From sequence record NC_050153.1: a stretch of DNA of 64,000 bases; one strand, written 5' to 3'. This stretch comes from Escherichia phage vB_EcoM-Ro157c2YLVW. Under the pieces are notes generated by a model that searched no databases, was not told the DNA's origin, and was given only the letters and a program-made list of their open reading frames with translations. This document shows, piece by piece, positions 25,162 to 43,753 of the stretch; position 1 is the first letter of the stretch, and every line of letters starts with the position of its first letter. A program made the position numbers and the translations under genes.

Positions 25162-26007
25162 ATGCTGGCTAAAGTCACTTTCCTGAGCTGTATAACGATG
25201 AGCGATTTTACTTTTTCTGGCTATGAATTGGCCTGCTTTGTAACACACTCCGGTCTATCCCGTAGCGCCGGGCATATCCTGTCGCAATGTGCAAATCTCG
25301 CGGCAACAACCAGTGAATACTTCATTCACAAGCCTCACCGCCTGATCGCGGCAGAAACTGGTTATAGCCAATCAACCGTCGTTCGTGCATTCCGTGAAGC
25401 TGTAAACAAAGGAATCCTGTCTGTAGAGATTGTTATCGGCGATCACCGTGAACGTCGCGCTAACCTGTACCGGTTTACACCATCCTTTTTGGCCTTCGCA
25501 CAACAAGCCAAAAATGCGCTGATTGAAAGCAAATTAAAGATCTCTTCAGCGGCAACCAAGGTTAAAGCTGTTCTCGCTAAGACATTGGCTTTATTTAATT
25601 TTTTATCCACACCCCCATGTCAAAATGATACCCCCTCCCCCTGTCAGGATGACGTGGCAATAAAGAATAAGAAGTCACAAGTTAAAAAAACAAAAAGATC
25701 AGTTTCCGGCGGTGCCGGAACGAGCAGACTCAAAAAATTGACTTCATGGATCGCTGAGGCAAAAGCAAAGGCTGACAATCTGCGGTTATCCAAAAAACGC
25801 GCTCAAAAACATGAGTTCAAGCAGAAAGTAGAGGCGGCAGCGCGGAAATATGCTTACCTGAAGGACAAGCGTTCTCCTGATATTGGCGGGATATCAAACT
25901 TCGATAATCTGCCGCATTGCATGACGGTAAACGAAGCTCTTAATGCGGTTTTAGCCAAAAATAAAGATAACGAACAATGGGGTATACCGGCAGGATTCAG
26001 AGGGTGA
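25162..26007 (+). CDS. repL: RepL-like lytic replication initiator
   Basis: 281-aa ORF directly after kilA; size and position match P1 repL as recalled. Confidence 0.55.
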   Translation: MLAKVTFLSCITMSDFTFSGYELACFVTHSGLSRSAGHILSQCANLAATTSEYFIHKPHRLIAAETGYSQSTVVRAFREAVNKGILSVEIVIGDHRERRANLYRFTPSFLAFAQQAKNALIESKLKISSAATKVKAVLAKTLALFNFLSTPPCQNDTPSPCQDDVAIKNKKSQVKKTKRSVSGGAGTSRLKKLTSWIAEAKAKADNLRLSKKRAQKHEFKQKVEAAARKYAYLKDKRSPDIGGISNFDNLPHCMTVNEALNAVLAKNKDNEQWGIPAGFRG

Positions 26008-32076: not shown

Positions 32077-32209
32077 TTTACTCTTCCTTAAACACAAGGC
32101 ACTTGTGTGAATCCCTTTTCGGAAGAGATTTTATTGAAAGTCACTTGTTGACTTTCTCGTGACAAGCAATTTTTTTATTTTTTCGGGAGTAGGGGAGGAA
32201 GGTAAAATC

Positions 32210-36990: not shown

Positions 36991-37003
36991 GGAAGGAAGG
37001 GTA

Positions 37004-37396
37004 TTATTCTACGCTTTCGATAAGAAGACCATGTTCATAACATTTAAGCTCATCGCCTTCGTACAGGAATTGGTATCCAATACCACCATTTTCATGGACA
37101 TTAGGGAATAACTCATAACTCACTGAAGAGCAAATCACACCAATGCAGCGATCAACGCCTTCTCGTTCTTCAGTGCTGAAAAAATCCTCTTCGGTAAGAA
37201 CATGAGTACATTGCTCATCAGCATAGGTCGGAAATACATGCTCGATGCAATCCGGGTGTTTTAAACCAAGCTGATCGGCAAGCTCGAAAGCATGACGGTA
37301 TTGTTCAGATCCTGGCTTGCCAACAGTGATGTGCTCAATTTTGTAGATTGAAGTCGCTTTGTTGATAGTTTGCTTTACTGTTACTTTATCAGACAT
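37004..37396 (-). CDS. hypothetical protein
   Basis: 130-aa ORF, Cys/His-containing; no family recognised. Confidence 0.45.
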   Translation of the reverse strand: MSDKVTVKQTINKATSIYKIEHITVGKPGSEQYRHAFELADQLGLKHPDCIEHVFPTYADEQCTHVLTEEDFFSTEEREGVDRCIGVICSSVSYELFPNVHENGGIGYQFLYEGDELKCYEHGLLIESVE

Positions 37397-37407
37397 AAAA
37401 ATCCCTT

Positions 37408-37740
37408 TTAGTTACCGCTGATAGCGCGGTTGTAATCATTAACGTTGCGATTCTTCCTGTTAATCCCCATCAGCATCGTTTCTGTATCGAGGATATACGC
37501 TGGCAGATCATCAAAATATTCACTGCTAAACTCTGGCATCCTGCACATAAACGCACTTTTGGGGGCAGGGTGGTTAACCTTTGTCGGCGTCGGCGTTAAA
37601 TTCGCTGATCGACTCCCGGAGCAACCGCTGAGTGTCAGCAGGAATGCGCTGGCGAACATTACCCGCCGCAACCAGTTGTTTCTGAACTTCAGCTTTTCGT
37701 TCCATTTGCCTGTCAGCATATTTGGCTTGTTCTGATTCAT
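37408..37740 (-). CDS. lipoprotein (lipobox LTLSGC), o-spanin-like; overlaps the upstream gene out of frame
   Basis: Signal peptide with lipobox ...AFLLTLSG|C; ORF starts inside and extends beyond the 37574-37996 gene in another frame. Confidence 0.5.
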   Translation of the reverse strand: MNQNKPNMLTGKWNEKLKFRNNWLRRVMFASAFLLTLSGCSGSRSANLTPTPTKVNHPAPKSAFMCRMPEFSSEYFDDLPAYILDTETMLMGINRKNRNVNDYNRAISGN

Positions 37741-37996
37741 TTTTCACTTCCTGGCTGTGAAAATGTTGCTCTGCTTTGTTCATCGTCTCAATGGTCTGGT
37801 TAAGATCCATTATTGACTTATCACGTTCCTTAACAGCCTGATCAAGACTGCCAATTTTCTCCATGGCTTGCTTTAGCTGATGACGTTCCCATGCAAACCC
37901 AGCACCAACAAGTGCGCAAATCAGAACAAGAACACCAGTAGCAGCAAGTTTCTCCTTCAAAGACAAAGCTGTTTTTAACGTAGAAAAGAATGACAT
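37574..37996 (-). CDS. i-spanin-like protein (N-terminal TM helix plus periplasmic coiled coil)
   Basis: Start MSFFSTLK with AGGAGG RBS; TM segment ATGVLVLICALVGAGFAW then charged coiled-coil region. Confidence 0.5.
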   Translation of the reverse strand: MSFFSTLKTALSLKEKLAATGVLVLICALVGAGFAWERHQLKQAMEKIGSLDQAVKERDKSIMDLNQTIETMNKAEQHFHSQEVKNESEQAKYADRQMERKAEVQKQLVAAGNVRQRIPADTQRLLRESISEFNADADKG

Positions 37997-38035
37997 GTCT
38001 TCCTCCTGAAGAAAAATTATCAATGAAGTCCTTTG

Positions 38036-38881
38036 TTACCGTGCCGCTTTGTTTAATTCATCAAGAACAGAATCAGGAACCAAAGCGGCGACTGCGCTGG
38101 CTGTGCTGGCCTTATTTGCTGATGCTTCCGCAAGCGCGGTACCGATAGCATGGTTATAAGCAGTTATGGCTACGTTGGCGCTTTCATTCGCTCGTTCATA
38201 CTGCTGTTGTAACGCAGTTGTGGGTGCTGTTGTCTGGTTGAAAACAACCCCAAACTGTTCAGTTGCTACTTTCAGAGATTCAATTTGCTCTTCTGTTAGT
38301 GCTGGTGGGGGAGTGGCAGTGCCGCCGCCTGAACCAGAGCCTGACGAGCTTTCTGAGCCAGTGTTAAGGGCCTGGTTAATCTCCCCCATTGCAGCGACTA
38401 AACTTGATGTATTAAGCGCGTTAACAGCGTCCTCAAGCGATTTAGTAATATTCACATCACCAATGGCAATAGAGATCGGCAGTTCTGAAACTTCTCGCTC
38501 ATTAGCACGGCAGTAAACATCCCAACCAATATCGAGTTGAAGCAGCATTGACAGATCTGCATAACCAGCCAACAGGTCCGCGTGCTTAGTTGCCAGTTCT
38601 CCAATGTTCGTTAAGCCGGTTGTGGTTGTTCTGATCGTTGAAACATAGCTGGTAATAGTGTCGGGATAGACAATTGTATCCAGAATTAATCCGGTCAATT
38701 CTTCTGCAAGCAGTTTTGCTGTGTTAGCACTGTTTCGTGCCGATGTTATGGCACCAGGTGTTTTCATCCCACCGGCGGCGGCCAATTTTTTATATGCGGA
38801 TAACTGGTAGTCTTTTTCCAGCATGATATCTCCTAACTTACCTGAACCAGGCCGTCTCCGGACGCTACGGTAGATCCGCAT
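38036..38881 (-). CDS. hypothetical protein (Thr/Ser/Ala-rich)
   Basis: 281-aa ORF. Confidence 0.45.
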   Translation of the reverse strand: MRIYRSVRRRPGSGKLGDIMLEKDYQLSAYKKLAAAGGMKTPGAITSARNSANTAKLLAEELTGLILDTIVYPDTITSYVSTIRTTTTGLTNIGELATKHADLLAGYADLSMLLQLDIGWDVYCRANEREVSELPISIAIGDVNITKSLEDAVNALNTSSLVAAMGEINQALNTGSESSSGSGSGGGTATPPPALTEEQIESLKVATEQFGVVFNQTTAPTTALQQQYERANESANVAITAYNHAIGTALAEASANKASTASAVAALVPDSVLDELNKAAR

Positions 38882-39117
38882 GAAACAGGGTCACCAACGC
38901 ATACGATCCCTTTACCATTGACGGTAAACCATGCCCTGGTTGATATAGCTTGCCCACCGTGCGTACTGTTTCCATCGGTATGCTGTGCATATTGCTTACC
39001 ATCAACTAACACTTCGACTCCGTTGACTTTAAGTAGTGGTTCACTCTCTACAGGAGGCCTGGATGGGAATCCTCCGTGCCCCGAACAAATGCTGTCTTTT
39101 GTTGCAATGCTTGCCAC
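38833..39117 (-). CDS. PAAR-like spike-tip protein candidate
   Basis: 94-aa ORF (GTG start); Gly-rich pattern with ...VNGKGIVCVGDPVSCGSTVASGDGLVQVS and ICSGHGG, resembling PAAR repeats. Confidence 0.45.
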   Translation of the reverse strand: MASIATKDSICSGHGGFPSRPPVESEPLLKVNGVEVLVDGKQYAQHTDGNSTHGGQAISTRAWFTVNGKGIVCVGDPVSCGSTVASGDGLVQVS

Positions 39118-39198
39118 GCCATCACCAATTATTTGCTCTGATTTTCGTTATTTTAACTTAGGTTATTTGTGGTCTGTATGGCGTTTACTTATCGCAAA

Positions 39199-39215
39199 AT
39201 TGCTCTAATAAATAT
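39199..39215 (+). promoter_or_regulatory. repressor operator-like site (ATTGCTCTAATAAATAT)
   Basis: 16/17 match to the recurring motif, upstream of the uhr-rdgC-dmt operon. Confidence 0.55.
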
Positions 39216-39286
39216 TGTTTTTTATGTCGTATTTTCGGTACCATTCAGCCATCGCCCTTCAATGGGCATTTGTTTGGAGTCGTCAG

Positions 39287-39571
39287 ATGCAGATGGAGCT
39301 AATAAGCCGCAAAGAGTTCGATAGCCGTGTAACCAGCGGTGAACTCGACAACTTGCAGGCTATCAAGGTGAAAGAAGGCTTTTGCCTCATTGGGAATCAG
39401 AGCGGAATAAATCGCGTTTTTATGCTTCGCCGTACGGATTTGAAGCCATTTGTCTGGAAGAACGAAATTGGTCCCAGCTCATACGCTCAAACGAGGGGGT
39501 GCCACAACCTGGCCTTTTTCTACAAAGACGAGCTTTCTGTGGTTGATATTCAAGGGTTACAACATGTTTAA
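39287..39571 (+). CDS. small protein upstream of the rdgC homologue
   Basis: Start MQMELIS with GGAG RBS; stop overlaps the rdgC start (ATGTTTAA). Confidence 0.5.
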
Positions 39572-40469
39572 GCACTGGAAAAACATTACTATTTATAAAC
39601 TTTCTCGTGAGGCGGATCTGACCGACTTAGAAGATAAAAAGAAAATGATCCTTTTCACGCCATGCGGTAGTCAGGATATGGCCAAGTTCGGTTTTGTATC
39701 GCCATTTGGTGATAATTCTGAAGTTATCGCTATGCATGGAAATGGTTTTATCCTTGTTGAAGCAAAGCGCGAAACAAAAATTCTTCCCCCGCCGGTTATC
39801 CAGCGAGCTATTCAAGAAAAAATTGAAAAACTTGAGCAAGAACAAGCGCGTAAACTGAAGAAAACAGAGAAGGACTCCCTGAAAGACGAAGTTCTGCATT
39901 CTCTTCTGCCACGGGCTTTTTCAAAGTTTTCTGTTATCCAGGCGATCTACGACGGTTCAACTAAACGTATCTATATCAATGCCAGCGCGCGGCAGGCAGA
40001 GGATATGCTCGCGCTTATGCGTAAGTCTCTGGGTTCTCTTCCTGCTGTTCCCCTGAGTGTTGAAAATCCCATTGAATTAACGCTGACCGACTGGGTACGT
40101 GATGGTAGTGCTCCACAGGGATTTCAAATGGGGGATGCGGCAGAACTTAAGGCAGTGCTTGAGGATGGCGGTATTGCCCGAGTGAAAAAGCAGGATTTGG
40201 GAAGCGATGAAATTTCCACACACCTGGAAGCTGGCAAGCTCGTCACTAAGTTGGCACTCGACTGGCAGAACCGCATTAAATTTACACTGGACCATAACTT
40301 CAGCCTTACCAGCGTCAAATTTGCGGATGAATTGCTTGAGCAGAACTCTGATATTGATAGTGAAGATGTTGCGCAGCGACTGGACGCAGATTTCTTCCTG
40401 TTGACCAGTGAAATTTCGTGCCTGGTTGATGCTCTGGTAAATGCCCTTGGCGGAGAGGCTAAGCAGTGA
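39564..40469 (+). CDS. rdgC: recombination-associated protein RdgC homologue
   Basis: N-terminus and most of the length near-collinear with E. coli RdgC as recalled (...[11 protein letters not shown]...RKSLGSLP...[10 protein letters not shown]...DLRQNEDID...); start at internal ATG 39564 (track ORF 39450 over-extended). Confidence 0.8.
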
Positions 40470-43400
40470 AAGAGCTGTGCTATGGATCTGTTTGCAGTGG
40501 AATTGAAGCCGCGAGTATTGCCTGGGAACCGTTGGGTATGCGTCCGGCGTGGTTTGCTGAAATCGAGCCTTTTCCATCGGCCGTTCTTGCGCTCCGCTGG
40601 CCCCATGTTGCCAACCTTGGCGACATGAAAAAACTTGCCAAAAAAGTCTTGGCTGGGGAAATCGAATCCCCTGACGTGCTCGTCGGGGGAACACCATGTT
40701 TTACCGCGGGGCATATGGTTCTTTGTAAAAATGGCTATAAACCAATAGAAAATGTTTGCCCTGGTGATTACGTAGTCAGTCATCTCGGGCGGTTACAACA
40801 AGTAAAAAGAGTTGGTTCAAAAATAGCTAATACGGGGTTACTTAATGCCGTTGGGCAGCCTTTAGGTATAAGAACAACCAATGACCATCCCTTCCTGGCT
40901 GTTCGGTGGAAAGCCCAAAACACCCGGAAAAATGGCACATATTTTAAGAGAGAGTTGTTGTCTGAACCGGAATGGCGAGCAGCATGTGATATGCCGGGAT
41001 ATCAATGGTGCGCTCTAACTAATTTCAATATTGCATTTCCAGATATTTGTTCTCGGTTCTTGTCTGAAGAACAGGCTATGTATCTTGCGGGCGCTTATGT
41101 TGGCGATGGATATATTAGGAGATGGAGAGGTAAATCTAAGAAGGCGGTTGTTTTTGGCATAAATTGCCAGAAATTGAGAAAGTTTCATTGCCGCATACCA
41201 GAAAACATATTTTCCGTGGCAAGCGAAATCCGAGGGAGCATCAAAGTAACCTTGAATGATACGTGTTATGCCAATTGGCTTAATGAACATTTTGGCGAGT
41301 TAAGCCATGCTAAGCGTATCCCTGCATGGGTGATGTCGCATCCATTGCGTCATGTGTTTTTACAAGGCTATCTTGATACTGATGGGACACCAAGTGGTAA
41401 AGCGGGATTTAGAATTAATAGTGTTAGTTCTGCGCTTGCTTGGGGCGTTGCGGGGTTGTCACAGACTTGTGGTTATGTTTCTTCGGTCAGCTTTATTGAA
41501 GTTGAGCCCAAAAAAGTGATCGAGGATCGCGTGGTAAATCAACGGAATTATTATCAGGTAACAATCTGCCCGCAGAAATTGTCACGTAAATCAAGATTGG
41601 CTCATGGAATGCTTTTACGAACAGTCAAAGAGTTTAAATCGGTAGGCCTAGATACTGTATACAACATAGAAGTCGAAGGTGATCATTCCTATATCCTCAA
41701 TGGTGCGGTGGTCCATAACTGTCAGGCATTCAGTATCGCGGGATTACGTGGTGGGCTTGATGATGAGCGTGGCGCGCTAACTTTAAAGTATGTGGAGCTT
41801 GCAAATGCAATTGACGACAAACGGGCTGAGTCATTTCTCAAACCAGCCGTTATCGTCTGGGAAAATGTCCCAGGAGTCTTGTCATCGGCAGATAACGCCT
41901 TCGGATGTTTCCTTGCCGGATTGGCTGGAGAAGATGTGCCATTTGAACCAGGTGATCGACCTGAATCAGGAAAAAGCAACGCGTTCTGGCGGTGGGATGG
42001 CAAAACCGGTTGCCATGTTCCAAAGTGGCCGCAGTGTGGTTGTATTTATGGACCGCAGCGAAAAGTGGCCTGGAGAATCCTTGATGCCCAATACTTCGGA
42101 GTGGCACAACGACGCCGACGCGTGTTTGTTGTCGCAAGTGCTCGAACAGATCTCGATCCCGCAACGGTACTTTTTGAGTTCGAAGGCGTGCGCCGGAATA
42201 TTGCGCCGAGCCGAAAAAAGAAGGAAATCGCTTCCGCCATTATTGCAAATGGCGCTGCAATCAGTGGCGAAAGCCTAAATCCATGCCTACACGCTGACAT
42301 GCCACCCGGTATGAAATCGACGAAAGCCGTAAACGCTTTCAGGATGGCAGCATTTGGGGAATATATTGACGATGAAACCGCATCGACAGTAAAGGCAAGA
42401 GATTTTAAAGATGCCACTGACCTTGCCGTTTTTAGCAGCACAGGAGCAGGTTTTTGGTCAGAAGGGCATGGTACATTGCGGGCACGTGAGCAAGAAAGCC
42501 ATGAGCATCTTGTTACATTGGCTTTTCCTGAGCGTATGAGCGGTACACAACATGCTGCAACTAAGAATACTTCACCATCTCTAATGGCTAAAAATCCAAC
42601 AGCTGTTTGCTATGAAGTAAGAAACGCAGAAGTAGCTGTCCGCCGTCTTACCCCTGTCGAATGTGAAAGGCTGCAAGGTTTTCCTGAGGGGCATACGTTG
42701 ATCCCGACGGAAAAGCGTAAAAAAGTTTCTTCAGATGAACTGGCATACCTTCGCAATCACTATCCAGATTTAAGCGAAGAAGAGGCCGCGATGCTTGCAG
42801 CTGACGGACCGCGTTACAAAGCGATCGGCAATAGTATGGCAATACCAGTAATGCGCTGGATTGGCGATCGGATTACTAAGGCCGTATGTCGGCAGAAAGA
42901 AGGAAGTGAAACAAAAGAGCGAAAAGTTAAACCAGCGGCAGAATTCGAACGGTCCATATTCAAATGGGCTGGTGGAAAATTTGGTGTTCTGGAACAAATC
43001 TTTCGCTATTTGCCAGAAGGGAAGCGCCTGATTGAACCTTTCGTTGGTGGCGGAGCTGTCTTCATGAATGCCGGATACCAGGAAAATCTGCTAAATGATG
43101 TGAATGCTGACCTGATTAACTTTTACAAGACTCTGCAACGCGAGGCGCATTCACTTATCACTCTGGCACATCGTTTCTTCCAGGACTACAACACACAGGA
43201 AGGATACCTGGCAGTACGGAATGCGTTTAACAAACAAGTCTATGATGATTTACATCGCGCAGCGGCGTTTTTGTTCCTGAACCGACATTGTTTTAACGGA
43301 TTGACGCGTTACAACCAGGCCGGTGAGTTCAATGTCGGTTATGGGAAGTATAAAACTCCGTATTTCCCATTACAGGAGATGGAAGCCTTCCTCGGTGCGG

Positions 43401-43753
43401 AAGGGCGGTCTGAGTTTGTATGCGGTGATTTTGCAGCGGTGATTGAAGCTGCCGGAGAAGGAGATGTCATCTTTTGCGATCCGCCGTATGAACCGCTTCC
43501 AAATACAGAGGGATTCACGAACTATTCCGGTCATGACTTTAAGTTTGAAGAGCAAAAACGCCTGGTGTCTCTGTTGACGGATGCTCATCGTCGAGGTGCA
43601 AAGGTTCTCATTACTAACAGTGGCGCGCCAAACATCAGAGAGCTTTATCATGACAGTGGCTTCAGAGTGGAACCTCTTTTTGCCAGACGTTCTGTGTCTT
43701 GTAAGGGGGACACTCGAGGTGTAGCTCATGACGTTTTGGGTATATTGCTCTAA
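40466..43753 (+). CDS. dmt: bifunctional DNA methyltransferase: N-terminal C5-cytosine MTase (intein-interrupted) fused to C-terminal Dam-like N6-adenine MTase
   Basis: C5 motifs: motif IV GGTP|CQAFS (split by intein), ENV (VIVWENVPG), [13 protein letters not shown]; Dam domain from ~42945 with KWAGGK and DPPY motifs. Confidence 0.85.
40697..41719 (+). mobile_element. intein (341 aa) with LAGLIDADG homing-endonuclease domain, inserted at the catalytic Cys of the C5-MTase
   Basis: Begins with Cys (CFTAGHMV...), block [17 protein letters not shown] motifs [11 protein letters not shown] and [11 protein letters not shown], terminal ...NGAVVHN followed by Cys+1; excision restores GGTPCQAFS. Confidence 0.85.

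Follow-up and report, generated by a model that had tools for sequence, protein, structure and literature searches.

In the window, by which we mean the whole 64,000-nucleotide stretch of DNA that was analyzed, a short gene of the minus strand runs from a GTG codon (39117..39115) to a TAG stop (38835..38833), as given in the ORF list of the window. It heads a leftward cluster, in which it is followed on the same strand by upfB, ppfA/mlp and upfA, and then by oriR/repA. The divergent genes uhr, hrdC (of the rdgC family) and dmt lie upstream. The first-pass annotation of this DNA had placed a 94-aa ORF at 38833-39117, between origin-proximal lipoprotein genes and an rdgC/dmt operon. Its coordinates are exact, the gene map bears out the placement, and the C-terminus that it quoted, VNGKGIVCVGDPVSCGSTVASGDGLVQVS, is indeed present as the Gly-rich end of the protein. 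The features of the locus are collected in Table 1. The GGTGAT element next to the GTG codon would serve as the ribosome-binding element of the gene, judging by its complementarity to the 3′ end of 16S rRNA.

This is not a chance ORF, because a search of 5.8 billion sequences returned 71 homologues of the protein, and 12 columns are invariant in an alignment of 24 full-length homologues with 40-84% identity. Many of the homologues are exactly 94 aa in length, and many are encoded on contigs of ~80-100 kb. A scan of IMG/VR with the family alignment gave 324 loci; the 80 listed were all 97-99% identical P1-like copies, and so added no diversity. Many homologues (P0005, P0007, P0009, P0011, P0015, P0028, P0038, P0042 and others) are named 'alanine racemase' in NCBI/UniRef. 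This appears to be a propagated misannotation; we judge the name to be wrong because these homologues are 94-aa PAAR proteins.

What is the gene? Over 3.5 kb of the window (37000-40500) the DNA is 97-98% identical to that of P1, RCS47, P7 and other punaviruses, and the genes are in the same order. In a phmmer search of the PDB the protein matched 9vyi_A, the chain termed 'UpfC' in the cryo-EM structure of the P1 baseplate, with 93 of 94 residues identical. The single, conservative substitution is at residue 86, which is serine here and alanine in the solved P1 chain. Gene, position, strand and neighbors are those of P1 UpfC (AAQ14038; PDB 9VYI chain A), so that a near-identical sequence is found at the same syntenic position, repA-oriR-upfA-mlp/ppfA-upfB-upfC facing uhr-hrdC-dmt. 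We assign the ORF as upfC of a P1-like phage-plasmid (Punavirus), encoding the spike-tip protein of the contractile tail, with a probability of about 97%. The element itself is an RCS47-like variant that differs from P1 in having a dmt gene with an intein. The extra segment of Dmt falls within the N-terminal C5-cytosine methylase half of the protein and matches Hint_2 (residues 77-126), LAGLIDADG_3 (298-361) and Intein_splicing. Dmt therefore contains an intein that includes a homing-endonuclease domain.

The gene that follows upfC is upfB. In the P1 annotation this begins at ATG 38881, encoding 281 aa and overlapping upfC by 49 nt. The annotated start is probably 19 codons too long, and ATG 38824 the likelier one, because phrog_1559 is then matched from end to end (positions 1-263 of 263 with residues 1-262 of the 262-aa version), and because residue 1 of a diverged UpfB homologue aligns with residue 20 of the long ORF. 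An AGGAG sequence (38834..38830) overlaps the TAG stop codon of upfC, with ATG 38824 located 5 nt later, and this overlap suggests translational coupling of upfB to upfC. No sequence relative of UpfB was found in the PDB, in keeping with its having been represented by an AlphaFold3 model in the cryo-EM work. Beyond upfB are two genes that the P1 record describes as 'possible periplasmic function' (ppfA) and 'membrane lipoprotein precursor' (mlp). By their PHROGs they form an overlapping spanin pair of the Rz/Rz1 type at 37408..38023 (-), distant from the other lysis genes of P1, lyz and lydA/B.

The central spike is encoded ~10.2 kb from upfC. The first-pass annotation had called the product of 49370-50002 a 'gpV-like hub'; this is actually the gene 5 spike of P1, and the hub is gp6. 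The Phage_base_V OB domain of gp5 scores 22.9 bits against a cut-off of 23.8.

Table 1. Features of the upfC locus and of related genes in the window.
Feature	Position	Strand	Basis and remarks
upfC CDS	38833..39117	-	94 aa, GTG start; PAAR-repeat spike-tip protein
GGTGAT, Shine-Dalgarno-like element	39121..39126	-	3 nt 5′ of the upfC GTG; read from the sequence
Predicted metal ligands of UpfC	H14 39078..39076; H46 38982..38980; H53 38961..38959; C80 38880..38878	-	Conservation
upfB, 'tripod' protein on spike tip	38036..38824	-	Likely start ATG 38824, 262 aa; P1 annotation, cryo-EM role
ppfA, Rz-like inner-membrane spanin	37574..37996	-	phrog_89 'Rz-like spanin' 1.5e-25, P1 annotation; same leftward cluster, not spike
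mlp, Rz1-like outer-membrane lipoprotein spanin	37408..37740	-	phrog_30284 'Rz-like spanin' 2.2e-77, P1 annotation; overlaps ppfA in another frame
gene 5, trimeric central spike	49370..50002	-	PDB 9vzk_q 'Gp5', full-length and near-identical, E 1.6e-136; cryo-EM
gene 6, trimeric baseplate hub bearing the gp5 spike	49995..51011	-	P1 annotation, cryo-EM assignment
dmt	40466..43753	+	1095 aa here, 754 aa in P1; gene length that of RCS47
Degenerate late-promoter-like site AAATAACCTaagtTAAAAT	39168..39150	-	Unproven; PWM 7.8 bits here, 6.0 at the same place in P1
Weak sigma-70-like site TTAAAA-17-AATAAT	39156..39128	-	Unproven

Fold and metal site of UpfC

The resemblance of the 94-aa protein to PAAR spike-tip proteins was pointed out in the first-pass annotation, and it is supported by sequence profiles, by the predicted fold and by the P1 orthologue seen in cryo-EM. 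The structure prediction that was proposed there as a check returns a PAAR fold, and the profile search a match just short of the Pfam cut-off. The Pfam PAAR_motif (PF05488 / cd14671) matches UpfC with an E value of 8.5e-6 and 26.4 bits, 0.6 bit short of the gathering cut-off of 27. Among the aligned members of the UpfC family the same profile matches 23 of 24 at E ≤ 0.01, the best at 2.4e-21, and PHROG 281 'PAAR motif' matches UpfC itself at 2e-30. In the phmmer search of the PDB the protein also found the tip of Klebsiella phage KP1 (5e-10), T4 gp5.4 (~1e-7) and VCA0105 of V. cholerae (4e-4).

An AlphaFold2 model of UpfC, calculated from the family alignment, has a pLDDT of 96.8 and a pTM of 0.86. 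It is a conical fold of three intertwined β-hairpins that superposes on solved PAAR proteins. Compared using Foldseek, it matches the P1 chain in 9VYI (P1 baseplate, C1 map) with a TM score of 0.97 and an rmsd of 0.6 Å. The TM scores with other PAAR structures are 0.86 for T4 gp5.4 (4KU0_D), 0.93 for the KP1 tip (9F4B), 0.89 for VCA0105 (4JIV_D) and 0.91 for c1882 (4JIW_D), each with a Foldseek probability of 1.00. The non-PAAR matches are noise, with TM scores of ~0.3.

The residues expected at the apex of the cone are all present. H14, H46, H53 and C80 are invariant in the 24 homologues, and in the phmmer alignment they pair with His, His, His and Cys of T4 gp5.4, so that the His3-Cys apex site of the PAAR superfamily is found in UpfC as conserved residues. 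In T4 gp5.4 the site is tetrahedral, with three histidines (H14 is named) and one cysteine, and it binds Fe (PMC12407873). We can only infer which metal is bound at the apex of UpfC.

UpfC in the P1 virion

The PAAR spike-tip reading is correct, yet it has already been published and is not new. The P1 record, in its 2004 annotation, describes the upfC product AAQ14038 as '31 pct identical to ... phage T4 product of ORF5.4', and the RCS47 record labels the gene 'UpfC (PAAR motif)'. Gonzales et al. (2022) predicted UpfC to be a T4 gp5.4-like tip using HHpred (PMC9024508). According to a preprint on the T4 spike tip, gp5.4 and UpfC (E 1e-8) are the only pair among T4 and P1 tail proteins that BLAST detects (PMC12407873). 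Two cryo-EM studies (2025, 2026) place a UpfC monomer on the needle formed by the gp5 trimer (PMC12810830; bioRxiv 10.1101/2025.07.21.665459). In the first of these papers cited, to which 9VYI appears to belong from the title of the PDB entry, three UpfB trimers make up a 'tripod' that is anchored at the spike tip, with UpfB represented by an AlphaFold3 model (PMC12810830).

UpfC escaped detection when purified P1 virions were examined by LC-MS/MS, which the authors explained by there being one small copy per virion (PMC9024508). Absence from virions had been put forward in the first-pass annotation as a ground for refuting the PAAR reading; it would mislead here, as a protein missed by LC-MS/MS is shown by cryo-EM. 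P1 deleted for upfC forms normal plaques (PMC9024508), and in a genome-wide CRISPRi screen upfC and upfB both scored as non-essential, with no plaque defect on knock-down. With neither deletion nor CRISPRi affecting plaques, the functional benefit of UpfC in P1 is putative. We regard the identity, the fold and the conserved ligands of UpfC as established by the comparisons above, and the place of P1 UpfC at the spike tip of the virion, together with its dispensability for plaque formation, as established by the publications.

Could the protein instead be a bacterial T6SS PAAR protein, carried as cargo or as a moron, that serves the secretion system of the host and not the virion? We give this essentially no credence. 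Several sources do call homologues 'Zn-binding protein involved in type VI secretion', but the NCBIfam equivalog for T6SS PAAR proteins (NF033420, T6SS_PAAR_dom) scores UpfC at 36.3 bits, far below its cut-off of 124. The protein has neither an effector nor an extension domain, being a bare 94-aa cone, and its nearest structures outside P1 are the phage tips T4 gp5.4 and KP1. PHROG 281 is placed in the category 'moron, auxiliary metabolic gene and host takeover', and upfC does lie outside the baseplate operons, beside plasmid-maintenance genes; against this, a relative with 43% identity is encoded between spike (Phage_base_V) and gpW/J/I genes in a P2-like tail operon. Above all, UpfC has been seen on the P1 spike by cryo-EM, and we reject the T6SS reading on the equivalog score and on the structure of the virion, which effectively refutes it. 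UpfC belongs to the tip of a phage spike and is no part of a T6SS. The correct label is thus 'spike tip protein UpfC (PAAR repeat)', rather than 'unknown function', 'moron' or 'alanine racemase'. Beyond correct annotation the importance of this is small.

Position and expression of the tip gene

The first-pass annotation drew attention to a PAAR gene lying away from the baseplate operons. The distance of ~10 kb from gene 5 is real, but it is no anomaly, as the separation is conserved in P1-like elements. Moreover, tip genes need not adjoin spike genes, as noted in the preprint on the T4 spike tip (PMC12407873).

How old is this arrangement? Serratia-type elements of 84 kb (L006), where UpfC is 61% identical, have the order ORFan-PAAR-UpfB-like-spanin-like; an 87-kb element, with 55% identity, has gp6-gp5-rdgC-dmt-(parM/stbB)-PAAR-UpfB-like, and a third lineage, with 57% identity, has rdgC...dam-PAAR-ORF-UpfB-like. 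In L006 and L093 the UpfB homologue comes directly after the PAAR gene; in L091 a single gene lies between the two. In two of the lineages homologues of gp5 and gp6 are found, 5-7 kb upstream of the tip gene and separated from it by rdgC and a gene for a DNA methylase. The 9-kb contig of the third lineage has rdgC and dam upstream of its PAAR gene, and no gp5 homologue was found on it. A tip gene set apart from the spike gene is therefore an old and stable trait of P1-like phage-plasmids, and the tip gene travels with an accessory gene of its own, upfB. Only in the more distant relative with 43% identity is the PAAR gene located inside a baseplate operon, of the order V-PAAR-W-J-I, and there UpfB is lacking.

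The Serratia-type elements have in addition an ORFan of 226 aa (L006 7321..8001; also in L007 and L008) that abuts the start of the PAAR gene and has no counterpart in the window. We considered whether it might be a displaced gp5 spike and rejected this: the BLASTP E value is 9.7, there is no Pfam or PHROG match, and a gp5 homologue is present 7 kb upstream. The ORFan may encode an additional part of the tip module.

Is upfC expressed with the baseplate genes? In the P1 record upfC has no annotated promoter. A late-promoter PWM was built from eight annotated P1 late promoters that were retrieved (consensus AAGTGACTT-N4-TAnAAT), which themselves score 13.6-23 bits. A scan of the window with this PWM picks up the known sites LPs, LP26, LPsit, LPdar and LPpmgL, with scores of 13.6-23.5 bits, but upstream of upfC it finds no convincing canonical Lpa-dependent late promoter, the best site scoring 7.8 bits. 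In a sigma-70 scan, promoter-like sites were no commoner in the real than in the shuffled sequence. Upstream of upfC there are just two promoter-like matches, the weak sigma-70-like site and the degenerate late-promoter-like site, both within 39128..39168 (-). Further PWM matches of 14-18.5 bits with AAGTGACTT-type boxes occur elsewhere in the window, at 32146..32128, 52464..52446 and 25180..25162 (-), outside the P1 stretches whose annotation was used. Late co-expression of upfC with the baseplate genes is thus only assumed, because a canonical Lpa-dependent late promoter is missing upstream of the gene.

These same features bear on whether UpfC might be a PAAR-fold protein with an envelope or lysis role at egress, acting alongside the ppfA/mlp spanins and upfA, with its presence on the spike incidental. 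The genes upfC, upfB, ppfA/mlp and upfA are on one strand with gaps that are short or absent, and the order PAAR-UpfB-spanin-like recurs in diverged relatives, but adjacency to the spanins may only mirror a shared late timing. Neither a signal peptide nor a transmembrane segment is present in UpfC, and the entire chain is taken up by the cone. A role at egress would be consistent with the want of a canonical late promoter, and with the loss of upfC having no plaque phenotype; the role at the tip, however, has been observed directly by cryo-EM. We consider the egress reading to be very improbable, and retain UpfC as the spike tip.

Given that upfC and upfB are separated from the spike gene, in three divergent lineages, by rdgC and a methylase gene, and have no canonical Lpa late promoter, they might make up an autonomous tip cassette, which could answer to a schedule or signal different from that of the baseplate, and could also be exchanged between elements in order to tune penetration of the envelope. 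This we think unlikely. If it were true, exchange of the cassette might provide tuning for hosts such as those with truncated LPS, as for T4 gp5.4.

Proposed mechanism and comparison with known spike tips

In the mechanism that we favor, a single 94-residue chain of UpfC folds into a small cone of three intertwined β-hairpins, the PAAR-repeat fold, whose apex would be pinned by a tetrahedral His3-Cys metal site made by H14, H46, H53 and C80. The flat, pseudo-threefold base of the cone would dock onto the blunt end of the trimeric β-helix of gp5. UpfC would thereby cap and sharpen the needle, which contraction of the sheath would drive through the outer membrane. The sharpening role is suggested by analogy with T4 gp5.4 and the PAAR proteins of the T6SS. 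As the tip region of P1 additionally bears three UpfB trimers, upfC and upfB may be viewed as a two-gene spike-tip module.

The closest parallel is gp5.4 of T4 (PDB 4KU0, 5IV5). Like UpfC, this protein of ~95 aa is a monomeric PAAR-repeat cone that has a His3-Cys site at its apex and caps a trimeric β-helical spike, and it is likewise dispensable for plaque formation; the two proteins are about 28-31% identical. The tripod of UpfB was called novel in the cryo-EM study of P1, where no T4 equivalent is described (PMC12810830). Gene 5.4 of T4 is near the spike gene (the molecule name in the PDB is segC-gp6 intergenic region), in contrast to upfC, which is 10 kb from gene 5 of P1. Furthermore, the T4 spike has a lysozyme domain that is absent from gp5 of P1.

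The T6SS PAAR proteins have an apex metal site equivalent to that of UpfC. The same conical fold is seen in VCA0105 (4JIV) and c1882 (4JIW) of Shneider et al. (2013), with TM scores of 0.89-0.91 although the sequences are only 16-23% identical to UpfC. These proteins dock onto a β-helix of the VgrG/gp5 type as UpfC does (PMC12407873). Unlike UpfC, they are parts of a bacterial machine for secretion, and they often come with effector domains.

Spikes of the P2 gpV type perform the same task as UpfC in another way, providing a sharpened, metal-stabilized tip on a trimeric spike that pierces the membrane (PMC12407873). In P2 the tip is trimeric because it is part of the spike polypeptide, and HxH motifs bind Fe, whereas P1 and T4 use a monomeric PAAR protein, distinct from the spike polypeptide, as the tip.
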